Shown in pieces: positions 3,846 through 26,989 of a stretch of DNA of 64,000 nucleotides (position 1 is its first letter; each line of letters starts with the position of its first letter). This DNA is from an uncultured Clostridia bacterium (GTDB taxonomy: Bacteria; Bacillota; Clostridia; Oscillospirales; Acutalibacteraceae), in contig CANQUV010000014.1 of NCBI GenBank assembly GCA_947627135.1, forward strand, positions 10,533 to 74,532, given 5' to 3'. Under the pieces are notes generated by a model that was not told the origin of the DNA, did not search any database, and was given only the letters and a program-made list of their open reading frames with translations. Both the position numbers and the translations under genes were made by a program.

Positions 3846-4190
3846 TTAAATCACCTTAATTTCTATTCCCAAAACTCCGTATTTTCTTTGCATTTCCCTT
3901 GAATAATAAACATCCATATCACTTGCCTTGGCGCTTGCAATATCCTCTTTTGTATATCCGCATTTTAAAAGAGGCAGGCTTTTATACAACTCATCAAAGG
4001 AATCAAAATGATGTATTGCCGTAATTTTTGCAATAAGTTTTAATTTTGGGTCTTCTGTATTTATAAATTCGATTTCATCGCCTTTATTTAACAAGCTTCG
4101 TTTTTCGTCATTAAGTCTAAGTTCAATGGTTTTTTGACCTGTTTTTATCATATAAAACGGCGACGGGTTTAATCTCATTTGATGTATCAT
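3846..4190 (-). CDS. ASCH-domain protein
   Basis: 114 aa. The N-terminal segment ...PFYMIKTGQKTIELRLNDEKR... resembles the ASCH/PUA-like beta-barrel family. Confidence 0.6.
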   Translation of the reverse strand: MIHQMRLNPSPFYMIKTGQKTIELRLNDEKRSLLNKGDEIEFINTEDPKLKLIAKITAIHHFDSFDELYKSLPLLKCGYTKEDIASAKASDMDVYYSREMQRKYGVLGIEIKVI

Positions 4191-6497: not shown

Positions 6498-8297
6498 TTA
6501 CTTGTCTTTATTATTTTGTACCGGATATTCGTTTCTGCTGTGTACCTTTAAAAGACCATTTGCATCTTTAGATATATTTTGCTGTTTTCTTCTTAAATTT
6601 TCTTCTCTTCTTCGCTTTGCTTCCTCGTACTGACGTCGTTTAATCATTTCAGCCTTACGACGCTTACGCATGGTTATATTTCTCTTTATCATTCTGTAAA
6701 GATTTGTGAAAAAATATCCTAAATGTATAAAAAATGATTTTACTCCGTTTAAGAAAATTAAAATTCCGTTAAGAATTACTGCACCAACAGTTTTTGCTTT
6801 TTTCTTAACAATCTCTTTATTTACACTGCTTACATGGTTTCTTTCATTTCTTTCATAATTATCTTCATCATCAACAGTTTTTCTGGAATAAATATCATTA
6901 TCTAATTCTAATTCTTCATCAAAATAGTCCTCGCTTTGCTCAAAACTTCTCTCACTTCCGATTACAGGACTATCCTCGAAATCTACATATTCTTCTTCAT
7001 ATTCTTCTTCATATTCCTCTTCTTCATCTTTGCTATATTCCTGTGTTACTTCACCCTCAAAATGGCTATGTGATACTACTTTGGTTTTCTTAAACGATTC
7101 TTCTTCATACTTATCTGTTACAGAATCTTTCTGTTCGGCTTCTTTAGTTTCTTTATCAGGAGTAACAACTTTTAATATAGGATTTTCTTCTGAGGTAAAT
7201 GCTGTATTGCTATTTTTATTTTGTGTCTCTTTTTCACTTGACGTACTAACTATATTATTTTCACTTACAATACTGATATTATCTGAATTTATCTTTTTTT
7301 CTTCTGTTTTTGCTTCTTCTTTTGACAAAGCCTCTCTTTTTTTATTGATTTCTTCAAAATCTTTTGAATTTCTGAACTGTGTAATAATATCATCTGCAGT
7401 TTCTTCATCATAGGCTGAATTCTTTAATGCTTTTTCTGTTGGAGACATATCTCCCGAAAAATTATTTTGTGAAATAATCGGATGAGATGAATATTCCTTT
7501 GCAAGCTCTGAAAGTATCTCTTGATTTTTGATTTTTTTCTCGTTGTTTTTTATATTTTTTTTCTTTTTCTTGTGCTTTTTCTTTATCATAAAAACAATAA
7601 GAACAATTAATATGATTATTACAAATACTATTATCCAAAAAATTGGATTTGTAATTAAATTCTTCACTTCAAACATTTTATGACCGTCAAACTCTACACT
7701 TTGAAGTATAATATCCATATTCTGATAATCTTCATTTGTAAGCTCGCTGTCTTTTGCAGGCTGCAAGGTTAATGTAATATTTTGACCGTCAATTACTGTG
7801 TTGCATTGAGTTGCATATACAGTTTGATCGTTTGATTTTGTTTTTAGCTGTAACTGCATAAATACATAATTGTTATATCTTTTAACTGTACAGCTTGTAT
7901 ATTCCGCTTCCGCTAAAAAGGAATTTTGAACATTTAAAAGCTGCTCATCATTTAAATCACTATAATTGCCCACGCTTTTACTGTTTTCATCAGAAAACAT
8001 TGTAACAGTAAAAACTCTTGAGCTGTCTTCATACATACCTTGCAAATAAATATTGTTACTATTAAAATTGTTCATAGTTGTAGAATAATCTAAACCAAAA
8101 AGAGAAAAATATTTATCTGTTTCGGGACTCTCTCTTGTAATTGCATACATATTATCAGGTAGATCTAAACCCATATTCAGTTCTTTTATGTAATAATGAT
8201 TTTCTGCAGCAAACGCTGAAAAACATGAAAAAGACAATAGCATTAAAACTACAAAAAAAACGGAATAAATACAAAATCCTTTCCTCATATTAAACAT
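6498..8297 (-). CDS. membrane protein with signal peptide, ~200-aa extracytoplasmic domain, TM helix and long E/K-rich low-complexity cytoplasmic region
   Basis: N-terminal hydrophobic signal ending FSAFAAE. TM segment IFWIIVFVIIILIVLIVFMI followed by KKKHKKKKK. Acidic repeats EEEYEEEYEEEY. A second hydrophobic segment and a basic tail follow. No recognised catalytic motif. Confidence 0.5.
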   Translation of the reverse strand: MFNMRKGFCIYSVFFVVLMLLSFSCFSAFAAENHYYIKELNMGLDLPDNMYAITRESPETDKYFSLFGLDYSTTMNNFNSNNIYLQGMYEDSSRVFTVTMFSDENSKSVGNYSDLNDEQLLNVQNSFLAEAEYTSCTVKRYNNYVFMQLQLKTKSNDQTVYATQCNTVIDGQNITLTLQPAKDSELTNEDYQNMDIILQSVEFDGHKMFEVKNLITNPIFWIIVFVIIILIVLIVFMIKKKHKKKKKNIKNNEKKIKNQEILSELAKEYSSHPIISQNNFSGDMSPTEKALKNSAYDEETADDIITQFRNSKDFEEINKKREALSKEEAKTEEKKINSDNISIVSENNIVSTSSEKETQNKNSNTAFTSEENPILKVVTPDKETKEAEQKDSVTDKYEEESFKKTKVVSHSHFEGEVTQEYSKDEEEEYEEEYEEEYVDFEDSPVIGSERSFEQSEDYFDEELELDNDIYSRKTVDDEDNYERNERNHVSSVNKEIVKKKAKTVGAVILNGILIFLNGVKSFFIHLGYFFTNLYRMIKRNITMRKRRKAEMIKRRQYEEAKRRREENLRRKQQNISKDANGLLKVHSRNEYPVQNNKDK

Positions 8298-8448
8298 CCC
8301 TTTTACTTATTCTTTATAAAAAATACTCATACATTTTTATTATACAAAAAAATAATGTAAAAGACAAGAGCAAAAATAAAAATACAGTCTTGACAATTGA
8401 AAACGGTTACTGTATAATAATAAAGCTTTATAAAAAAGATAACTATTT

Positions 8449-8525
8449 CGAGGTGTAACTCAGTTTGGTAGAGTGCTTGGTTTGGGACCAAGATGCCGCA
8501 GGTTCAAGTCCTGTCACCTCGACCA
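8449..8525 (+). tRNA. tRNA-Pro (anticodon UGG)
   Basis: Cloverleaf read by eye. 7-bp acceptor stem CGAGGTG/CACCTCG, anticodon loop TTTGGGA with TGG at 8483-8485, T-loop TTCAAGT, encoded CCA. Confidence 0.9.
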
Positions 8526-8531
8526 TAAAAT

Positions 8532-8563
8532 AAGGAATGCCCTTGGGTATTCCTTATTTTTTT
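8532..8563 (+). terminator. intrinsic terminator after tRNA-Pro
   Basis: Hairpin AAGGAATGCCC/GGGTATTCCTT followed by a T-run. Confidence 0.7.
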
Positions 8564-9026
8564 AATGAAAGTAGTTGAAATAATTTAAAGTTAAATTTTA
8601 ATTAAAAACTTAGTGTGGCGTTTTTAGTAAGAATATATAAATAATATACTTCATCAAACCACAAGAATAAAATGAAATTCTTTACATAATAAACTTATGT
8701 TACCCCCTCCAATTGAATTTTAAAAATCTAATGAGGATTTTAATTTTTCACTAACAACTTCTTACATTATACTATTTGAGAGTTGATTTTTGTAAATAAT
8801 AGCGAAATTTCATTTTAAGCTCTGCTTTTTAAATAATTAAATTAATAATTATTTATTAAAAAATTTTAAAGTCAAAAGTTAAAAATATTTTTATGATCTT
8901 TTGCAAATAGATCTTAATACCTACTAATATAAACCTATTGAAATCTTAACCTTTACATGATAAAATTATTTTTATAAAAATTATTATATAAGTTTACATT
9001 TTAATAATTTTAAAGGAGAAATTTCA

Positions 9027-10097
9027 ATGTCTGATACATCTATATTAAAAAAAAGAGTTTTTTCTTATGATATAATACGAATCATAGCTGTTTTAGCAGT
9101 TATTATGATTCATTCATCGGTAGGTTTCGTTACAAGTAACCCGCAATCCACTAACTTTATTTTCGGTAATATTTTTGACGGCATGTCTAGAATTGGCGTA
9201 CCGTTGTTTGTAATGATTTCCGGAGCACTGATGTTAGATGAAAACAAAACTGTTACTATAAAAATAATGCTTAAGTATGCCTTGAGAATTTTTATACTTC
9301 TATGTATATGGTCGCTGTTGTATGCATTTGTATATCAAATTATAAATCCAATAATTAATAATGCTTCTATTTCAATGGACAAGTTTTGGAACGCATTTGT
9401 TTACGGACATTATCATTTATGGTATCTGTATATGCTGATTGGGCTATACTTAATAACACCTATATTAAAAACATTTGTAAAGAAATCAAATGAAAAAATA
9501 ATTCTTTATTTTATAACTCTTGCTGTAATTATTCAATTCACTATACCTCTATGTAATTTATTGATTAATCAAATTACGGGAACAACTAATTTACTGCAAA
9601 ACTTTTTCAGCAAATTTCAGTTAGGTTTTGTCGGGCAATACACTGCATACTATCTTTTAGGCTGGTATATTACAAACATAAATATAAAAAAGAAACACAG
9701 AAATTTATTGTATGCGTTAGGAGTTGTCGGATTATTGATAACCATATTAGGACCTCAGCTATTAATAAACGATACAAATAAAATATACAACAATTTTTAT
9801 TCGGATACGAGCATAAATGTTATGTGTTACAGCGTAGGAGTTTTTGCATTCTTCTTTTACTCTTTAAGTAATAAAAAATACAAACGAAATAGTTCATTTA
9901 TTATGACACTGTCAAATTTAACATTCGGCGTATATTTAATTCACCCGTATATTTTATATCTATTGGGCAAGTTCATTAATACAGGAAATGCATTGACTCA
10001 AGTACCGTTGAATTGGATAACAGCAACTATAATTTCATTCATTATTGTATTTTTAATGTCAAAAATCCCATTGTTAAAAAAGCTTGTAAGGTTTTAA
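9027..10097 (+). CDS. acyltransferase family 3 (integral membrane O-acyltransferase)
   Basis: 356 aa and polytopic. The N-terminal segment FSYDIIRIIAVLAVIMIHS is typical of Acyl_transf_3. AAAGGAG RBS upstream. Confidence 0.7.
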   Translation: MSDTSILKKRVFSYDIIRIIAVLAVIMIHSSVGFVTSNPQSTNFIFGNIFDGMSRIGVPLFVMISGALMLDENKTVTIKIMLKYALRIFILLCIWSLLYAFVYQIINPIINNASISMDKFWNAFVYGHYHLWYLYMLIGLYLITPILKTFVKKSNEKIILYFITLAVIIQFTIPLCNLLINQITGTTNLLQNFFSKFQLGFVGQYTAYYLLGWYITNINIKKKHRNLLYALGVVGLLITILGPQLLINDTNKIYNNFYSDTSINVMCYSVGVFAFFFYSLSNKKYKRNSSFIMTLSNLTFGVYLIHPYILYLLGKFINTGNALTQVPLNWITATIISFIIVFLMSKIPLLKKLVRF

Positions 10098-10213
10098 AAA
10101 TACAGGTAAATCTTTTATTATTTTAATTTTCAAATTACTTATTTTATAACTTATTATTTTTCTTTATATTAAAATACAAAAACAAAGTCAATTAATTTTA
10201 AAAAGTTACATAT

Positions 10214-10275
10214 TGTGCCGCAATAATACAAATTTTGTCATATTTATTGACAATTTTTTTCACATTATTTATTTT
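10214..10275 (+). promoter_or_regulatory. putative AgrA(LytTR)-dependent promoter of agrB
   Basis: Half-sites GTGCCG (G at 10217) and TTGTCA (G at 10237) lie 20 bp apart. The proximal half-site is 10 bp from -35 TTGACA (10247-10252). A 17-bp spacer leads to a weak -10 TATTTT (10270-10275). Geometry matches the modules at 10905 and 13517. Confidence 0.45.
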
Positions 10276-10297
10276 ATTTATAAAGAAGGCTGGTAAT

Positions 10298-10888
10298 ATG
10301 ATTGCGGAAATTTCAGAAAAGATCTCATCTTTTATTTTAAGCAATTCCGATAACAGCAATAAAGAACTTAAAAGTATTTATAAATACGGTATAGAAATTT
10401 TTATTTCTTCTCTACTTAATATATTTTTAATTTTTATTATTGGCTTTGTTACTGATACTTTAATTCAAAGTCTTTGGTTTTTGATTTGTTTTATTCCTTT
10501 GAGACAATTTACCGGAGGATGGCATGCAAATACTTACTTTAAATGTAATCTAATATTTTGTATATCATATATACTTATAATTCTGTTTTCATTTTTATTT
10601 TCTCATATTGAAAACGCATATCTTATCTTTATACTGCTCTTAACAGGTTTATTGCCTGTAATAATTTTAAGTCCTGTTGAAAATAAAAATAAAAAAATTA
10701 AAAATAGAAAAAAATTAAAATTTTTAAGTACTGTATTGTATATCATATTTTCTATAACAAGTCTTTGCTTTTACTTTTTTTATAAGGAGATATCTTTTAT
10801 AATATTATTTACACTGTTGTGTGTATCAATTGCAGTAATTGCAGGGCGTTTATCAGAAGTTCTACAAACCTTTAATCGACAAAGTTAG
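10298..10888 (+). CDS. agrB: AgrB-family accessory gene regulator B (AgrD-processing membrane peptidase)
   Basis: Polytopic membrane protein with LRQFTGGWHANTYFKC. His and Cys are 7 residues apart, as in the S. aureus AgrB catalytic pair (HAPSSFWC). GAAGG RBS precedes the ATG at 10298. The ORF-track start at 10235 would overlap the promoter. Confidence 0.8.
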   Translation: MIAEISEKISSFILSNSDNSNKELKSIYKYGIEIFISSLLNIFLIFIIGFVTDTLIQSLWFLICFIPLRQFTGGWHANTYFKCNLIFCISYILIILFSFLFSHIENAYLIFILLLTGLLPVIILSPVENKNKKIKNRKKLKFLSTVLYIIFSITSLCFYFFYKEISFIILFTLLCVSIAVIAGRLSEVLQTFNRQS

Positions 10889-10904
10889 ATAAAATAATAC
10901 AAAC

Positions 10905-10970
10905 TTTGCCTAAATTATACATATTATGCCTAAATCATTGACTTTATAATTAAATAATTTATTCTAAAAT
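10905..10970 (+). promoter_or_regulatory. putative AgrA(LytTR)-dependent promoter driving an intergenic transcript
   Basis: Direct repeats TTGCCTAAAT and ATGCCTAAAT with G at 10908 and 10928 (20-bp period). -35 TTGACT at 10938-10943, 10 bp from the proximal repeat. -10 TAAAAT at 10965-10970 with a 21-bp spacer. About 27 of 41 positions match the agrD promoter module, including the blocks TTGCC, TACATATT, TGCC and ATTGA. Confidence 0.55.
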
Positions 10971-10977
10971 TACCAAA

Positions 10978-11228
10978 GTAATGTAGCCTATTAAATTAAT
11001 TTTTAATTTACTATCTTTTGCACAACAGTCCTGCTGCATTACTTGGGTCAATTTCGGACCATGGTGTTTGTAATTCTTTGTAAAGGATGCGGCTTTTGCA
11101 TGAAGTGTTGTCGGCTCCTTCTTCAATTTCGACAACTCAGTTTTATAAACGAGGGCGTATAATTCTTTTTTCTGTTGTGCTTTTACGATAGACTAAAGAC
11201 CTTCCCGCATCGGAAGGTCTTTGTGTTA
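10978..11228 (+). ncRNA. candidate quorum-sensing-controlled small RNA (ends approximate)
   Basis: Bounded by the promoter module above and the intrinsic terminator at 11198-11228. Closing helix GCACAACAG (11020-11028) / CTGTTGTGC (11172-11180). Internal hairpin GTTGTCG/CGACAAC (11107-11136) has a 16-nt CU-rich loop GCUCCUUCUUCAAUUU. No ORF has a usable RBS. Confidence 0.4.
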
Positions 11229-11229
11229 A
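11198..11229 (+). terminator. intrinsic terminator of the candidate RNA / agrB read-through
   Basis: Hairpin AGACCTTCC-CGCAT-CGGAAGGTCT followed by TTTGTGTT on the plus strand. Confidence 0.7.
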
Positions 11230-11261
11230 GCTTTTTATATTTTCATTTTCCTTTTTACCCT

Positions 11262-11300
11262 AAACAGACTAATTGATCGATCGGTCAATTAGTCTGTTTT
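11262..11300. terminator. bidirectional terminator (terminates agrC on the minus strand)
   Basis: Near-perfect 15-bp stem AAACAGACTAATTGA / TCAATTAGTCTGTTT, flanked by T-runs on both strands. Confidence 0.75.
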
Positions 11301-11333
11301 ACTTTTAATGCCGGTTTGTAATAATATAATTTT

Positions 11334-12662
11334 TTAATCTGTTCTTAGAATTACAGTTACGCAAAACATATTGTCGGGACTTTCGTATATATCAAGTTTT
11401 CCGTTGTATTTATTTACAATATGATTTACAGAAGTGAAACCAAATCCATGCTTTGATGAATCTTTCTTAGAAGTTAAAAGCTTAGAATTATTTTTCAACA
11501 CGGATTTTTCAATTGAATTTTTAATGGATAGAGTCATCATATCGTTATCAGCGCTTATTTGTATTTTTATGTATCTTTCATTTGATGTGATCTTTTCGCA
11601 GGCTTCAATGGCATTATCAAGTAAATTGCCCAGAAGATTACATAAATCAATATCATCAATATTAATAATATACTTGCTTGACTGCACAAACACATTTATA
11701 CCCACACTTTTTGCATAAATTATTTTAGAATTAATAATTGCATTTACAGTCTCATTATCTGTGCAGACTGTTCCTCCTAAAAACACCTGTTGGTGAAGAA
11801 GCGTTGAAATATATTTTTGAGTTTCTTCAATTTTTCCTTGTTTAAGCTGCGCTTCTATTACAAACAAATTATGCTTTAAATCGTGGCGAATGGTTTTAAT
11901 TTCTTTTTCCTCAAGTTTTATATTCTCCACATAATGAGCCTGATACTCATTTTGAAGTTTCAAGAGTTTATTTTCTGATTCAATATAGTTCGTGCGACTG
12001 AGCCTGACAATCATATAAAATGAAACAATATTCAGTATAACCAGACATAACAGTCCAAATAAGGCAAGAATTTTACCCATTTCATTGAGTTTGTTCTCAA
12101 TATTTATTAAGTCAATGATTGTAAAAACTGCAGTTGAAATTAAAAATGTTGTTATAATTGAAATCCATTCACTGAAACTCATACTGAACTTTTTTTCTTT
12201 TTCAAAAACTTTCTGAATTACAAGTAATAAATAATAGAGTAAAAACTTTGTAATTACAACAGTAAAGGTACGATAAATACTTTGCTGATAAATTAAATTT
12301 TCGAGCCCCTCTCCGCAAATTGTGGAAACTGCTGTTGCAACAACACTATTTACAATAATTATACTTACAATGGGAATAAGCGACACAATAAACTTTATGG
12401 GAATACTTCCGTTTAAGTAAAGCAAACAGAAAATGAATACAATAGTTGAATATAGCACTGCCCCAAAGCTTTCAAATTCAGTTATGCTGTTGACTGCTGT
12501 TACAAGTAAAGAAAACAACAACCAAAAAATCCAAAAGCCCATTATAAATTTTTTGCCGTTTACTTTTTTGCCCAAAAATTCTTTGGCAAAATTTAAAATA
12601 ATAAGGGTTTCAAAACAAGTTGCCAATATTTCAAATACATACCAACAAATTTTTTCCATCAT
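11334..12662 (-). CDS. agrC: AgrC-like sensor histidine kinase (HPK10 family, GHKL ATPase)
   Basis: About 6 N-terminal TM helices. H-box IRHDLKHNL, N-box NLLDNAIEA, G-box HGFGFTSV. Its start overlaps the stop of the LytTR regulator by 4 nt. Confidence 0.8.
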   Translation of the reverse strand: MMEKICWYVFEILATCFETLIILNFAKEFLGKKVNGKKFIMGFWIFWLLFSLLVTAVNSITEFESFGAVLYSTIVFIFCLLYLNGSIPIKFIVSLIPIVSIIIVNSVVATAVSTICGEGLENLIYQQSIYRTFTVVITKFLLYYLLLVIQKVFEKEKKFSMSFSEWISIITTFLISTAVFTIIDLINIENKLNEMGKILALFGLLCLVILNIVSFYMIVRLSRTNYIESENKLLKLQNEYQAHYVENIKLEEKEIKTIRHDLKHNLFVIEAQLKQGKIEETQKYISTLLHQQVFLGGTVCTDNETVNAIINSKIIYAKSVGINVFVQSSKYIINIDDIDLCNLLGNLLDNAIEACEKITSNERYIKIQISADNDMMTLSIKNSIEKSVLKNNSKLLTSKKDSSKHGFGFTSVNHIVNKYNGKLDIYESPDNMFCVTVILRTD

Positions 12663-13381
12663 ATAGTTTTCCTCAAATAATCCGTAAATTTTTCATCCGC
12701 AAAATTTTTATGATTTCGACTTATTTCAAGCCGTTCACCGTTTTTTAAAATTAAAATTTCTCTTCGTTTGTCAACAAACTGAACATATTTTAAGTTTACC
12801 AAATATCTCTGATGAATTTTGATAAAATCATATTCTTCAAATTCTTTGTCTTTGTCTTTCATAACATCTCTTACTTTTATAACTTTATCATTTGATAAAT
12901 GATATTCTATGTAATGTCTGTCACTTTTAAGATATAGTATATCCATATAAGAAACAACTGTATTAATACCTTCCGCATTTAAAATAAGTGACTTGTTTTG
13001 CTTGTTGAACAAAAGTAGTTTTTCAATAACTTTTCTAATATTATTTTTTATATTATTTGATCCGTCTTTTCTAATAAAATAAAAGGGTTGGTAGTTAAAG
13101 CTGTCATATACAAGTTCATCTTTTGATGTTATAAAAATAATTATTGCATCCCTGGAATCCTTTCTTATTTTTTCCGCAATTTTAAATCCATCTATATCCG
13201 GCATTGAAATATCAAGAAAAAATACATCGTAATGTTCCTTGCCAAGATCTTTTAAAAGTTTTATGCTGTCATTAAATGGAGTAATTTTTGCTGAAGATTT
13301 ATGTTTTTTAAATTCATCACAAACAGTCAGATATATGAAATCCAATGACGACGGATTATCGTCACAAATAGCTATTTTCAT
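12659..13381 (-). CDS. agrA: AgrA-like response regulator (REC + LytTR DNA-binding domain)
   Basis: N-terminus MKIAICDDN, phospho-acceptor region FLDISMPDIDG, and a C-terminal LytTR-type domain (...HQRYLVNLKYV...). AAGGAGGG RBS. Confidence 0.85.
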   Translation of the reverse strand: MKIAICDDNPSSLDFIYLTVCDEFKKHKSSAKITPFNDSIKLLKDLGKEHYDVFFLDISMPDIDGFKIAEKIRKDSRDAIIIFITSKDELVYDSFNYQPFYFIRKDGSNNIKNNIRKVIEKLLLFNKQNKSLILNAEGINTVVSYMDILYLKSDRHYIEYHLSNDKVIKVRDVMKDKDKEFEEYDFIKIHQRYLVNLKYVQFVDKRREILILKNGERLEISRNHKNFADEKFTDYLRKTI

Positions 13382-13435
13382 AATTACCCTCCTTATCTAC
13401 TCATCATTAAAATACAATTATATGTAACTAAAATA

Positions 13436-13494
13436 ATTATATCATTATTTGTCATTTTTTCAATAATAGGCGCAAAACAACCGTAAATGTACAA
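13436..13494 (-). promoter_or_regulatory. putative promoter of agrA-agrC with weaker LytTR-like half-sites
   Basis: On the minus strand: -35 TTGAAA (13458-13463), 16-bp spacer, -10 TATAAT (13436-13441). Half-site TTGCGC lies 10 bp upstream of the -35, and TTGTAC lies 19 bp further upstream. Confidence 0.35.
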
Positions 13495-13516
13495 TTTATT
13501 ATGTTTATAAAACATT

Positions 13517-13579
13517 TCTTGCCATAATATTACATATTTTGCCAGTTTAATTGAACATTTATACAAAGCATAGTAAAAT
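13517..13579 (+). promoter_or_regulatory. putative AgrA(LytTR)-dependent promoter of agrD
   Basis: Repeats CTTGCCATAA and TTTGCCAGTT with G at 13521 and 13541 (20-bp period). -35 TTGAAC at 13551-13556, 10 bp from the proximal repeat. 17-bp spacer, then -10 TAAAAT at 13574-13579. Confidence 0.55.
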
Positions 13580-13632
13580 ATTTTCACAAATAAATGATAG
13601 TTTTCTATTATAAAACGAAGGAGGTAAAAATT

Positions 13633-13773
13633 ATGAAGTTTAAAAGAACACTTGCAAATGCAGTTGAGTCTGTATCTGTAAAAATGGCTAAAGCAGCTCA
13701 AGGCAGTGCATCAATCTTTGGTTTTCATCAGCCTAAAGAGCCTGATATGTCTAAACTTACAGAAAAGAAGTAA
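13633..13773 (+). CDS. agrD: AgrD-like autoinducing peptide precursor (46 aa, below the ORF-track cutoff)
   Basis: AGGAGG lies 8 nt upstream of the ATG. Product: MKFKRTLANAVESVSVKMAKAAQGSASIFGFHQPKEPDMSKLTEKK. It has an amphipathic N-terminus, a five-residue SIFGF segment, then the charged HQPKEP tail typical of clostridial AgrD C-termini. An intrinsic terminator follows. Confidence 0.7.
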   Translation: MKFKRTLANAVESVSVKMAKAAQGSASIFGFHQPKEPDMSKLTEKK

Positions 13774-13785
13774 TTAAATTTTAAA

Positions 13786-13822
13786 AAGAGAGTAACAGCA
13801 TTTAAGGCTGTTACTCTTTTTT
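13786..13822. terminator. bidirectional terminator (agrD on plus, Zn-ribbon membrane gene on minus)
   Basis: Stem AGAGAGTAACAGC / GCTGTTACTCT followed by a T-run. Abuts the stop of the minus-strand gene at 13825. Confidence 0.75.
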
Positions 13823-13824
13823 TA

Positions 13825-14235
13825 TTAAAATAAAATATTCTTTTTAAATTGGTGCCTGCATTTTGGGCAGCGAACTGTATGAACTCCCTTTTTTCTGGGA
13901 ACTCTCAACTGTGCCTTGCAATTGGGACATTTAAAGTAACATAAGCTCTTAATATCTCTGATCTTTTTTATTTGAAATGAAAAAAATGAATTAACCTTTT
14001 TATAAACAGGTAAAAACTTGTTATTTTCATACAATCTTTTTGTAATATTTTTAGATAACGATCTGTAAAGGCATAATCCTAAAAAAAACAGACCTATTAT
14101 ACTTAAAATCCAATTTCTGAAAAAAAGGTTTATTACAAAAATTATTCCCCACAGAATCAGTAAAAAAGTATTGAGCTGGTCGTTACCATAACGACCCTGC
14201 ATAAAATAATACAGTTTTTGTATTAACATTCTCAT
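13825..14235 (-). CDS. small membrane protein with C-terminal zinc ribbon
   Basis: Two hydrophobic helices, then CPNC...(17 aa)...CPKC. Confidence 0.5.
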   Translation of the reverse strand: MRMLIQKLYYFMQGRYGNDQLNTFLLILWGIIFVINLFFRNWILSIIGLFFLGLCLYRSLSKNITKRLYENNKFLPVYKKVNSFFSFQIKKIRDIKSLCYFKCPNCKAQLRVPRKKGVHTVRCPKCRHQFKKNILF

Positions 14236-14321
14236 ATAGAATTATCCTTTCTGTATGATATAAGCTAATACTAGCACATTTTTATTTAAACAACAATATA
14301 CATATCATAATTTTTATAAAA

Positions 14322-15512
14322 TCACTTTAATATTTCTTCCGCAAGCTGATTAAGCGCTTCCATATCTGATGATTTAAGTGAGGATTTTATAGTTAAACTG
14401 CTGTCTATAACTTCTATTTTCATAGTTTCCAAAATTTCAAGCATTTGCTTTCTTGCAGACGCTGCCCAGCTTCCGTTATCAAAAACGGCTACTTTTCTGT
14501 TCTTTAATGCGTGAGCCTTTAAATCAAGCAACAAGGTTTCCATTTTCGGATAAATACCTCCATTATAGGTAGGTGCTGCAAAAACAATTCTCTTGTATTT
14601 AAATGCGTCGCTTAAAATATAAGATACATCAGTCTTGGAAACATCGTAAACCTTAATGTTTTTAACGCCCTTTTCTGCAAGTAATGTTGCCAGTACATTA
14701 ACCGCATTTTCAGTATTCCCGTACATTGAAGCATAAGCGATTAATACTGAATCAAGTTCAGGCTCATAAAGACTCCATTTATTATATTTATCAATGATAT
14801 ATTCAAGGTTTGTTCTCCATACGGGACCGTGTAAAGGACAAATCATTTTTATATCAATTTCTGAAGCTTTTTTCAAAACTGCCTGAACCTGTGCACCGTA
14901 TTTGCCTACAATATTTGTATAGTAGCGGCGTGCCTCCTCTAAAAATTCAGCTTCAAAATCATATTCATCGTTAAATATATTTCCGCCTAGTGCCCCAAAT
15001 GTACCGAATGCGTCTGCGGCAAACAAAGCTTTTGTATATATATCATAGGTAAGCATAACCTCCGGCCAATGTACCATCGGCGCATTTACAAATGTAAGGG
15101 TATGCTTGCCAAGCTCAAGGTTGTCTCCCTCTTTTACTGCAATAAAACGATTTATTACTTCAATATCGTAAAACTGTTCAATCATTTTGAGCGTTTTTAC
15201 ATTACCCACAACCTTAACTTCCGGGTATCTTAATATAAGTTCGTCCAGGTTTGAACAATGGTCAGGTTCCATGTGGTTTATTACAACATAGTCAAGTTTT
15301 CTGCCGTTTAATACACCTGCAATATTGTCAAATCCCTGCTTGCTTACACTGTCATCCATTAAATCAAGAAGTGCAGTCTTTTCATCTGCAATTATATAAG
15401 AGTTATAGGAAACGCCTTTTGGAATCGGAAAAATATTTTCAAATAATGCAAGTCTTCTGTCGCTTACTCCAACATAAAATGTGTCTTCTGTAATTTTTCT
15501 TGTAAAATACAT
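14322..15512 (-). CDS. FprA-type flavodiiron protein (metallo-beta-lactamase fold + flavodoxin domain)
   Basis: Diiron motif HMEPDH and a C-terminal flavodoxin-like domain (LIAYASMYGNTE). 396 aa. Confidence 0.85.
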   Translation of the reverse strand: MYFTRKITEDTFYVGVSDRRLALFENIFPIPKGVSYNSYIIADEKTALLDLMDDSVSKQGFDNIAGVLNGRKLDYVVINHMEPDHCSNLDELILRYPEVKVVGNVKTLKMIEQFYDIEVINRFIAVKEGDNLELGKHTLTFVNAPMVHWPEVMLTYDIYTKALFAADAFGTFGALGGNIFNDEYDFEAEFLEEARRYYTNIVGKYGAQVQAVLKKASEIDIKMICPLHGPVWRTNLEYIIDKYNKWSLYEPELDSVLIAYASMYGNTENAVNVLATLLAEKGVKNIKVYDVSKTDVSYILSDAFKYKRIVFAAPTYNGGIYPKMETLLLDLKAHALKNRKVAVFDNGSWAASARKQMLEILETMKIEVIDSSLTIKSSLKSSDMEALNQLAEEILK

Positions 15513-16936: not shown

Positions 16937-18103
16937 CTATTTTAACCAGGCAAGATCAGTATCCGTTGCAAAATTGTCAATACCGTAAAGAACTAAAACC
17001 TTATCAAAGTTTCCTTTTTTTACAATCTCTGAAACAGAACCCTTATAATACCTTAAATCAACAAGGGTTATACTGTTGAAATTATCTGCTGCAAAGGGTG
17101 CAAAACAATGTGAAAAACTGTCTTTGATAATTAAAAGATTTCCTGTTTTTACATTTGTATTTGTTATATGTTCAATTGGATGGTTTCCGTCGAGAAAAAT
17201 CGGATATTTATCATCTTCTTCCAGATGATTAAAAAAATACATATTATGATATGTTTGTTGGGTATCTCCTTCTACAATTTCTAACGTAATATTTTTTTCC
17301 GTATCATCAGGATTGTTCCATACCTGAACTTTATCGGGATCTGTAAACCAGAACCCGCTTGTAGAATATGTTGTTCCGTAAAAATCATCGTAAGTTTCTA
17401 TATTGAACTTCTCTTCGCTTGTTGGTGTAATTCCCCATTTATCGCAAAGCTGTTTATATCCTTCGTATGCTCCTTGCGTTGTCCAATGGTGGTCGGTTTT
17501 ATAGTAAAGCTGGATACCGTCGCTTGAACTTTTCTTAAATCTTTCCCGTAAATCTATAAATTCTATATTGTTTGTACTGCAAGCGTTTATAATTTGATTA
17601 AAATAAATATCATCATTATAATTAAAATGATTTACAGGAAGTTTATCGCTCATTATATATCCTGTGCTGGGAACGATCTCCACAGATACCGGAACATCAA
17701 TACTTTTACTGAACTTTACAACTGTATTTATATTATTTTGTACTTTACTGTTCTTTTCTTCTACGGGAACATTTATTAAATAACCGTCTTTACCGTTGTA
17801 AACGCCGTCAGCTCCGTTATGACCTATATAAAGATTATAATATGAATTTAAACCCTTCCAGAAATTTCTGCCATAGAATTGGTCTGCAAGGTAAGTTTCA
17901 AAATTTTCGGTAAATTCACCGCTAAACAAGGTTTCAAAAGAAAACTCCGGAAATTGCTCTAAATACCTTTTTTCGGTTGAGCTGTAATCACTTTTCGGCA
18001 TTATTATAAAAAGTATGCAAAAGGTAAAAATAAATCCAACAAACAAAACTAATGGTCCAAATCTTAAAATACTTTTATTTTCTTTTGTATTATCCATAGT
18101 CAC
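16937..18103 (-). CDS. DHHW-family protein (AlgX/AlgJ/PatB-like SGNH-type O-acyl transfer partner of MBOAT)
   Basis: N-terminal TM anchor and the signature YYKTDHHWTTQGAY. Immediately downstream of the MBOAT gene. Confidence 0.75.
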   Translation of the reverse strand: MTMDNTKENKSILRFGPLVLFVGFIFTFCILFIIMPKSDYSSTEKRYLEQFPEFSFETLFSGEFTENFETYLADQFYGRNFWKGLNSYYNLYIGHNGADGVYNGKDGYLINVPVEEKNSKVQNNINTVVKFSKSIDVPVSVEIVPSTGYIMSDKLPVNHFNYNDDIYFNQIINACSTNNIEFIDLRERFKKSSSDGIQLYYKTDHHWTTQGAYEGYKQLCDKWGITPTSEEKFNIETYDDFYGTTYSTSGFWFTDPDKVQVWNNPDDTEKNITLEIVEGDTQQTYHNMYFFNHLEEDDKYPIFLDGNHPIEHITNTNVKTGNLLIIKDSFSHCFAPFAADNFNSITLVDLRYYKGSVSEIVKKGNFDKVLVLYGIDNFATDTDLAWLK

Positions 18104-26251: not shown

Positions 26252-26950
26252 TTATTTCAATAAATGTATTGCTGTCTCCGCTTTATCAATAATTCTTAAA
26301 TCATTATCATAAGTACATAATTTCCTTGCCTGCTGTATATCCACCCAAATATAGCTGTCTATTTCTGATTCCTGAATTTTTACATTATCAGTAAACGCCC
26401 TAGCCAGAAAAAATACAACTCTTTTTCTTATTTTTCCAAAAGGACAATACTCGCTGATTTCTCTGAAATCACCGCAGATTTCAACATCAAGGTTTGTCTC
26501 TTCCTTAATTTCTCTTACAGCAGTTTCCTGTTCTGTTTCGTTTTTTTCAATATGACCTTTCGGAAAACTCCAATATCTTCCGTTGCTGTTCTTGACCAGC
26601 AAAAGATTTACGCTGTTCTGTCGGCCTTTATAAAAAATTACTGCGCCGCAGGATTTTTCATATAAACATTTAATTTTTTCTACAACTACATTTTTAAGTA
26701 CAGATAAAATTTCTAAAAGCTCCGGCTCATAAAAAATCTCGCCGTCACAAGCAATTATCTGCTTTTCTTCTCCGTCTTTAAATGTTACTACTGCAATAAC
26801 CGTACCGTTAAAAAAGTCAGCGGGCCTTTTTCTGGATACTATATATATACTTTTGTTTTTTTCGGAATCTGTGTTTGCATATCCTGTATAAAGACCTGCT
26901 TTTTCAGACAATATTCCGAAAACATTTGCCTCTGCCCTTTCTGCCAGCAC
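26252..26950 (-). CDS. NUDIX hydrolase with ~100-aa N-terminal extension
   Basis: Nudix box GHIEKNETEQETAVREIKEETNL in the C-terminal half. Confidence 0.75.
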   Translation of the reverse strand: MLAERAEANVFGILSEKAGLYTGYANTDSEKNKSIYIVSRKRPADFFNGTVIAVVTFKDGEEKQIIACDGEIFYEPELLEILSVLKNVVVEKIKCLYEKSCGAVIFYKGRQNSVNLLLVKNSNGRYWSFPKGHIEKNETEQETAVREIKEETNLDVEICGDFREISEYCPFGKIRKRVVFFLARAFTDNVKIQESEIDSYIWVDIQQARKLCTYDNDLRIIDKAETAIHLLK

Positions 26951-26989
26951 GGTAATACCTCCTTTTCAATTCTTTATTTATGCTTTTTT

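Follow-up and report, generated by a model that had tools for sequence, protein, structure and literature searches.

The 64-kb window analysed here, a stretch of 64,000 nucleotides (nt) of contig CANQUV010000014.1 from an uncultured Clostridia bacterium, carries between 9 and 14 kb an agr-type quorum-sensing system with an atypical layout. The agrB gene, an AgrC-like GHKL kinase gene and a gene for an AgrA-like LytTR response regulator are each recognized by Pfam, and a candidate agrD, split from agrB, lies under its own LytTR-type promoter (Table 1). Between agrB and the kinase gene is a gap, the subject of this analysis, for which an earlier note had proposed an AgrA-controlled RNA. On comparative sequence evidence, the stretch holds a genuine non-coding RNA gene, conserved and structured, that is tied to the promoters of agr autoinduction. 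The sequence features that the note had listed were all found where it placed them or within a few bases. Its interpretation is supported as well, after correction of the start, the strength of the terminator and the topology.

Table 1. Features of the agr locus and of the predicted RNA, in positions of the window.
Feature	Position	Strand	Details
agrB promoter	10208-10275	+	Boxes ACATATTGTGCC and ACAAATTTTGTC; -35 TTGACA, 17 nt, TATTTT
Composite-pattern site before agrB	10208-10250
agrB	10298-10888	+	Pfam AgrB, 1.5e-38
Gap, agrB to AgrC-like kinase			445 bp
Composite-pattern site before RNA	10899-10941
Direct repeats, predicted LytTR-regulator site	10899-10910 and 10919-10930	+	ACAAACTTTGCC and ACATATTATGCC; starts 20 bp apart
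Core promoter of RNA	10938-10943 and 10960-10965	+	-35 TTGACT, 16-nt spacer, -10 TATTCT
Predicted non-coding RNA	10972-11229	+	~255 nt
H0	10972-10974 with 11063-11065		ACC with GGU
H1	10976-10987 with 11033-11044		AAGUAAUGUAGC with GCUGCAUUACUU; loop contains 5' arm of long-range helix
Long-range helix, 5' arm	11011-11015 and 11020-11028		CUAUC and GCACAACAG
H2 hairpin	11046-11060		Completes 5' domain along with H0
H3	11066-11073 with 11143-11150		GUUUGUAA with UUAUAAAC; closes three-way junction 11066-11150
H4 hairpin	11079-11100		Apical loop AUGCGG, 11087-11092
H5 hairpin	11105-11138		16-nt loop GCUCCUUCUUCAAUUU, 11114-11129
Unpaired block	11153-11163		GGGCGUAUAAU; consensus GGGYGUAYRAU, conserved
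Long-range helix, 3' arm	11172-11180 and 11187-11191		CUGUUGUGC and GAUAG
T1	11195-11229	+	AAAGACCUUCC 11195-11205, loop, GGAAGGUCUUU 11212-11222, then GUGUUAA; -17.5 kcal/mol
T2	11262-11310	+	Hairpin, then UACUUUU; -22.4 kcal/mol; called by terminator scan
AgrC-like GHKL kinase	11334-12662	-	Pfam
LytTR response regulator (AgrA-like)	12659-13381	-	Pfam
agrA-agrC promoter	13463-13436	-	Near-consensus sigma-70: TTGAAA, 16 nt, TG-TATAAT
Composite-pattern site before agrD	13512-13554		Boxes of agrD promoter
Candidate agrD	13633-13773	+	46 codons; strong GGAGG ribosome-binding site

The gap had been described as holding no credible open reading frame (ORF), and comparison of its homologues agrees: start codons, frames and lengths vary among them, ribosome-binding sites are absent, and insertions and deletions are not multiples of three. 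Small ORFs of 33-39 amino acids (aa) occur in the window copy, and Pfam gives no match in the gap. Nor does the stretch match a known RNA family; a cmscan search of 8000-15000 against all 4227 Rfam families, at E values up to 10, returned nothing within 10972-11230. Plasmid and phage collections likewise gave no match to the RNA. The nucleotide identity of the RNA homologues to the window copy is 59-83%, compared with 62-75% for agrB and 65-80% for agrC coding DNA. Conservation in relatives is therefore about that of the flanking protein genes, which is not expected of a neutral spacer at this divergence. The + strand of 10978-11240 folds at -67.6 kcal/mol, against -52.4 +/- 4.0 kcal/mol for 200 shuffles (z = -3.8). 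Because the minus strand folds about equally well (z = -4.1), fold energy alone cannot assign the strand, and the + strand is assigned from the promoter and the G-U pairs. The GC content of 11000-11249, 36.8%, is the maximum of a neighbourhood with 20-31% around it. Taken by its sequence, the gene represents a new RNA family of a known kind, that of LytTR-activated regulatory RNAs, and we infer that a discrete transcript is made from it.

Homologues were gathered through AgrB and AgrC searches, contig look-ups and one genome scan. At least seven further distinct homologues were found, at loci whose AgrB and AgrC proteins are 49-69% and 51-77% identical to those of the window. By nhmmer, homologues are full-length in L001 (AgrB 69%, AgrC 77%), L002-L004 (AgrB 57%, AgrC 67%), L005/L135 (AgrB 49%, AgrC 65%), L006 (AgrB 68%; its contig stops right after the T1 hairpin) and L075, which comes without adjacent agr genes from a metagenome-assembled genome labelled Ruminococcus sp. 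HAN024 (JAFLSJ010000036.1). Two diverged copies lie in L136 and L137 (AgrC 51%), and an identical copy of the RNA occurs on six contigs of the same species.

The genomic surroundings of these copies differ. The RNA lies after agrB and opposite agrC in the window, L001 and L002; in L136/L137 it lies after an agrA-agrC-agrB operon, and the gene that it faces is a PAP2 gene. In L135 the RNA lies beside agrB and faces an inserted ABC2-membrane gene; this gene, for an ABC2-type membrane protein of 1010 aa (L135 5616-8648), separates agrC from the RNA in the L005/L135 species. In L075 (4760-5331), the RNA, its boxes and the second hairpin sit between a gene for an OmpR-type regulator and a Zn-ribbon gene, the same Zn-ribbon gene that flanks agrD in the window, and agrB, agrC, agrA and agrD are not alongside. 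In five of five genomic contexts (agrC, ABC2-membrane, PAP2, Zn-ribbon) the RNA is followed by a convergent gene, and the promoter boxes are retained in every one. Since the boxes are always kept and the downstream gene is always convergent, the RNA is best described as a stand-alone gene, neither a leader nor a mere 3' untranslated region (UTR) of agrB. It has the generic attributes of a stand-alone small RNA (sRNA) gene, namely its own promoter, the probable terminator hairpins T1 and T2, convergent neighbours and covariation, the U-tract of T1 being weak.

Other candidate loci were examined and set aside. The distant agr loci L133, L134, L138/L139 and L140 (AgrB ~41% or AgrC 33-36%) have a canonical agrB-agrD arrangement and no RNA homologue, and the 464-bp gap of L140 holds only a terminator and unrelated sequence. 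A scan of a genome collection with the T1 pattern returned more than 119 loci from many phyla, and nhmmer confirmed only L075 among the matches listed; the scan is unspecific because the hairpin is a common terminator shape. A metagenome scan with CTGTTGTG plus T1 gave a single match, L126, which arose by chance. So far, the RNA family is confined to a narrow clade of uncultured Ruminococcus-like bacteria.

The LytTR-type promoter said to point into the gap is present, with the same design as those before agrB and agrD, both here and in relatives. It carries paired ACAnnnnnTGCC boxes, 20 bp apart. The composite pattern ACA-N5-TGCC-N8-ACA-N5-TGYC-N7-TTGA has exactly three matches in the 64-kb window and none in 100 shuffles, an expectation of zero that is partly circular because the pattern was written from those three sites; allowing up to two mismatches revealed no extra site within the window. 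The recurrence of the design in relatives provides an independent test. It is found before agrB, the RNA and agrD in L001, L005/L135 and L136/L137, before agrB and the RNA in L002 and L006, before the RNA in L075, and also before agrB in L134, a canonical agr locus. We infer that the AgrA-like regulator, a protein of 240 aa, binds these boxes. Together with the sigma-70 promoter of agrA-agrC, they suggest a wiring in which the receptor would be constitutive and signal production autoinduced, with agrB, agrD and the RNA under the same control. The -10 element of the RNA promoter reads TATTCT or TATGCT at 16-17 nt from the -35 in most homologues (TATTTT in L005). On account of this conserved element the transcript is predicted to start near 10972, six bases upstream of the 10978 given previously, and the six added 5' bases complete a conserved 12-bp 5' helix.

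The predicted RNA is elaborately folded. Two elements had already been seen by eye: a 9-bp closing helix, in which GCACAACAG (11020-11028) pairs with CTGTTGTGC (11172-11180), and a 7-bp hairpin, in which GTTGTCG (11107-11113) pairs with CGACAAC (11130-11136) around the 16-nt loop GCTCCTTCTTCAATTT (11114-11129), all in DNA letters. Both withstand comparison, the helix with compensatory changes and the hairpin with a covarying stem. Not described in the note are the 5' helix that crosses the closing helix and the three-way junction with its conserved apical loops UGCGG and GCUCCUUC. The full model was built from single-sequence folds and hand comparison; RNAalifold, run on a structure-blind MAFFT alignment of six sequences, recovers T1, the 5' helix and the helices of the junction, and shows double changes at 12 pairs. 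Pair-counting statistics are taken only from a structure-blind MAFFT alignment, A2; the hand alignment, which MAFFT re-gapped when it was N-padded, was counted separately. In A2, 84% of cells pair, compared with 42-46% when the partners are slid by 1-3 columns, although this percentage is inflated because the structure was partly derived from the same sequences. The count of pairs changed on both sides, which is less affected, is 16 as against 3-11 after sliding, and none of 500 shuffles reaches these values.

Compensatory events were judged clearest where sequence homology fixes the alignment. In the long-range helix, G:C becomes U:A in L001 and A:U in L005. H1 changes A:U to G:C in L001, H2 shows a compensatory G:C to U:A change, the H5 stem replaces U:A by C:G in L006, L075 and L001, and in H3 U:A becomes C:G in L005. 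Further changes are those of H1 in L002 (G:C to A:U) and in L005 (four pairs swapped), and the different H5 stems of L002 and L005. By hand alignment, the two diverged copies L136/L137 have exchanged the whole long-range helix for UCAACGGUU:AACCGUUGA and CUACU:AGUAG, have new H3 and H4 stems, and change U:A to A:U in T1. H0 varies hardly at all. The UGCGG of the H4 loop is present in all eight homologues though its stem sequence varies. Kissing of this loop with CCGCA of the T1 loop, available in the window, was rejected because the homologues do not conserve it.

The 5' arm of the closing helix sits within the loop of H1, so that the two helices cross. When either helix is forced, the nested energies are nearly equal in four of six close sequences: -66.8 (H1) and -66.4 kcal/mol (long-range) in the window, -74.6 and -76.9 kcal/mol in L006, -77.4 and -78.7 kcal/mol in L075, and -73.2 and -71.7 kcal/mol in L005. 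In L001 the long-range fold is favoured by 7 kcal/mol (-73.4, with -66.4 for H1), and in L002 the forced folds, -61.8 and -60.9, both fall short of the unconstrained minimum of -67.2 kcal/mol. Because both crossing helices covary, the RNA is modelled to form either a long-range pseudoknot or two alternative states. The segment CUGUUGUG, the 3' arm of the long-range helix, can also pair weakly with the adjoining UAYGRUAG (11172-11194). In L002 (~4060-4085) this becomes a strong local hairpin, CUGUUGU-GCCG-ACAACGG, and the variable R and Y positions always keep the pairing. The local CUGUUGUG hairpin could be a third, competing structure.

At the 3' end, two hairpins come into question. The note had described a clean intrinsic terminator. 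Its hairpin stands (11195-11222, with arms AAAGACCTTCC at 11195-11205 and GGAAGGTCTTT at 11212-11222 as DNA), and the T1 stem is invariant in six close homologues. The clean T-run does not hold, since the run is weak (TTTGTGTT, of which TTT can join the stem), leaving an interrupted U-tract, UUUGUGUU, and the terminator scan called 11262-11299 instead. T1 is probably a terminator with an interrupted U-tract. The hairpin called by the scan, T2, has 17 bp (11262-11299) with TACTTTT after it, a better U-run on the + strand than that of T1. It occurs in most loci and is absent in L005/L135; its stem is CAGACUAAUUGA in the window and CAGGCUAAUUGA in L075, which keeps it with a compensatory A:U to G:C change, and different stems are found in L001 and L002. 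T2 may be either a back-up terminator of the RNA or a bidirectional terminator shared with agrC, and it probably also serves to terminate agrC. Ending at T1 would give the predicted RNA a length of ~255 nt, ending at T2 one of ~335 nt. Within the 40-nt U-rich spacer 5' of T2, UUUUCAUUUU is common to the window and L002.

These features lead us to favour, as probably correct, the reading that this is a stand-alone, agr-autoinduced structured RNA gene of ~255 nt acting as a trans effector of the quorum circuit. Once the AgrD-derived peptide has reached high density, the AgrC-like kinase would phosphorylate the LytTR response regulator, which would then bind the paired ACAnnnnnTGCC boxes before agrB, agrD and the RNA and switch on all three. 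Co-induction with agrB and agrD appears to be the best-supported step of this mechanism because the promoter design is shared. The transcript would fold into a 5' domain, whose large loop would pair with the 3' tail as a pseudoknot or as an alternative closing helix, and a three-way junction. The junction would expose two apical loops, both conserved: one is UGCGG, the other the CU-rich GCUCCUUCUUC, which resembles an anti-Shine-Dalgarno sequence. The RNA would act in trans as the effector arm of the quorum response, most likely through pairing of the CU-rich loop with the ribosome-binding sites of target mRNAs. The H5 loop resembles the 3' end of 16S ribosomal RNA (CCUCCUU) and complements ribosome-binding sites of the GAAGGAG type, which is consistent with pairing to Shine-Dalgarno sequences in trans.

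Several observations weigh against this reading. The duplexes of the H5 loop with 142 candidate starts in the 64-kb window (ORFs of at least 50 aa with a Shine-Dalgarno-like motif) have a mean of -9.1 kcal/mol and a standard deviation of 2.8; the best, at -16.3 kcal/mol, lies ~2.6 standard deviations from the mean, and none is an outlier. The CUCCU of the loop is kept in seven of eight homologues, L136 having UUCUUCUUUCUU instead. Within the structure, L002 and L005 do not form H0 or the outer segment of the long-range helix, L075 has a broken H2 and L001 a broken H3, and the alignment that includes L136/L137 was hand-built to fit the structure. The start and end of the transcript rest on sequence prediction, and T1, with its poor U-tract, escaped the consensus terminator scan. 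The boxes are spaced 20 bp apart, compared with 21 bp at VirR sites and 21-22 bp at AgrA sites. Only eight distinct sequences are known, three of them close. Among possible partners, the best near-complement of the H5 loop (17265-17280) was rejected as a target, since it lies within coding sequence. The start region of a 232-aa ORF (26950-26980, minus strand), AAAGAAUUGAAAAGGAGG...GUG, complements 14-15 nt of the H5 loop with one bulge; at -15.2 kcal/mol it is no outlier among the 142 and is a candidate target only.

Much of this evidence also bears on what else the RNA might do. It may be real and agr-controlled yet work without anti-Shine-Dalgarno pairing, by binding or sequestering a protein or as a structural or catalytic RNA. 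The crossing helices and three-way junction seem more elaborate than pairing alone needs, UGCGG persists in every homologue while L136 has lost CUCCU, the GGGYGUAYRAU block and the T1 stem are further invariant motifs, and no outstanding target appears within the window. Set against this, the conserved neighbourhood contains no candidate partner protein, the RNA occurs in five different contexts, RNAIII and VR-RNA are large and structured and yet act by pairing, and CU-rich apical loops are the typical pairing module of Firmicute sRNAs. We consider this alternative unlikely, if still deserving of real weight; a protein-binding or other function is conceivable because the UGCGG loop and the GGGYGUAYRAU block fit no assigned role. 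Rather speculative, and somewhat less to be expected, is a bolder version in which H1 and the long-range helix, as alternative or cooperative elements, would form a pseudoknotted switch gating the 16S-like loop, which would titrate ribosome-binding sites globally at quorum, or in which the fold and UGCGG loop would be a dedicated protein- or ligand-binding module.

The note had allowed for an origin as the 3'UTR of agrB, and processed agrB read-through could influence agrB mRNA stability or translation in cis: no terminator-like site separates the agrB stop (10888) from the boxes (10899), and in most loci the RNA lies directly 3' of agrB on the same strand. This origin has lost ground, however, because every homologue retains, directly upstream, a complete promoter including the regulator boxes, and in L075 RNA and promoter follow an oppositely oriented OmpR-type regulator gene, without agrB; we regard it as improbable. 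Read-through past T1, with its weak U-tract, might instead yield antisense RNA or transcriptional interference and thereby negative feedback on the receptor, as in the window, L001 and L002 the RNA is directed towards the 3' end of agrC. Such convergent transcription could do without the internal helices and loops that are conserved, the strong hairpin T2 with its U-run precedes agrC, and the RNA is conserved in L075, L135 and L136/L137, where the convergent neighbour is a different gene, so that we give this account little credence. Least credible of all is a small secreted or membrane peptide under AgrA control, or a decayed ancestral agrD. In staphylococci AgrA drives phenol-soluble modulin genes, and hld lies within RNAIII; the window does contain ORFs of 33-39 aa, and agrD normally lies 3' of agrB, as in L133, L134, L138 and L140. 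Yet no ORF keeps its start, frame or length, none has a ribosome-binding site, the indels ignore the reading frame, Pfam finds no match, the helix substitutions are compensatory, and an agrD remnant would not match the conservation level of coding DNA.

As a stand-alone trans effector, the RNA would find its nearest parallels among known LytTR-activated RNAs. RNAIII of Staphylococcus aureus (RF00503) is likewise encoded inside the agr locus with paired LytTR-type repeats like those at the agr genes, as predicted here, and is large and multi-helical with pyrimidine-rich apical loops. The C-rich loops of RNAIII pair with Shine-Dalgarno regions. In contrast, RNAIII has 514 nt and several C-rich loops, compared with ~255 nt and a single CU-rich loop here, and encodes delta-haemolysin (hld), whereas no conserved ORF is found here. 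It is also divergent from agrBDCA (P3 versus P2), whereas the present RNA lies in tandem after agrB and convergent to agrC-agrA, with agrD separate. The RNAIII covariance model gave no hit in the cmscan of 8000-15000 at E values up to 10. The designation "RNAIII analog" is therefore acceptable as a functional analogy and not as homology, there being no RNAIII match, no divergence from the agr operon and no peptide.

Similar likenesses and differences apply to two clostridial systems, from which the present RNA was set apart by their descriptions rather than by sequence comparison. VR-RNA, VirT and VirU of Clostridium perfringens are activated directly by a LytTR regulator answering an agr-type peptide, with direct repeats upstream (PMC4963840). 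The 5' and 3' ends of VR-RNA are predicted to pair, comparable to the long-range helix here. However, VR-RNA has 386 nt and is encoded far from agrBD and virSR, and the VirR motif, CCAnTT-N15-CCAGTT (PMC4963840), differs from ACAnnnnnTGCC. In Clostridioides difficile, RgaR activates both agrB1D1 and the sRNA SpoZ (n00620/nc063) via the same direct repeats (PMC10602386), the wiring suggested for the present locus. SpoZ differs in its length of ~530-560 nt and in being antisense to a 58-aa ORF that it represses; homologues do not share the minus-strand ORFs present here (58 aa in the window), so no SpoZ-type antisense partner is apparent. RgaS, moreover, is unresponsive to AgrD1, whereas kinase, regulator, agrB, agrD and RNA are clustered in the present locus. 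In S. aureus, C. perfringens and C. difficile alike, regulatory RNAs are direct targets of activation by LytTR regulators (PMC10602386, PMC4963840), and the authors of one study state that an RNA of this kind generally belongs to agr regulons (PMC10602386). By analogy, the RNA described here is probably this clade's counterpart of RNAIII or VR-RNA. A literature text search of incomplete coverage returned no paper on an agr-linked RNA in Ruminococcus.

Among the Clostridia of gut and rumen, agr-type peptide signalling is widespread, and the functions it controls there are almost unknown. An RNA wired directly to the autoinduction promoters would be the most likely circuit output in the Ruminococcus-like clade, and it offers a handle on the regulon, with conserved loops for target prediction and a promoter for use as a reporter. 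It would also be a fourth, independently evolved case of a LytTR quorum regulator acting on a regulatory RNA, after RNAIII, VR-RNA and SpoZ, and would support a general design. The conserved crossing helices pose a testable structural question; if the fold and the UGCGG loop did prove to be a dedicated binding module, the RNA would represent a new class of structured effector RNA in Clostridia of gut and rumen. We judge the impact to be moderate because the family is small (eight distinct sequences, all from uncultured organisms) and known from sequence alone. The RNA is of use as an entry to the output of agr systems in these Clostridia, and unsurprising in kind.

The candidate agrD encodes MKFKRTLANAVESVSVKMAKAAQGSASIFGFHQPKEPDMSKLTEKK, for which Pfam gives no match. 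Copies were located in L001 (3738-3878), L002 (6586-6726), L135 (2867-3007, minus strand), L136 (2374-2523, minus strand) and L137 (2373-2522, minus strand). The site that usually holds the ring-forming cysteine is a serine here (SASIFGF|HQPKEP) and is kept across the clade; the counterpart in L136/L137 reads CSSIFCF|YQPKEP, and more distant loci have SAWGI or SLWGL. Because serine replaces the ring-forming cysteine in the candidate AgrD, the sequence suggests that the autoinducers of this clade are lactones and not thiolactones, the lactone ring predicted for the window peptide being S-I-F-G-F. Further upstream, the nearest Rfam hit at gathering level is a tRNA gene (8449-8522, + strand; RF00005, 67 bits), ~500 bp 5' of the acyltransferase gene that precedes agrB.

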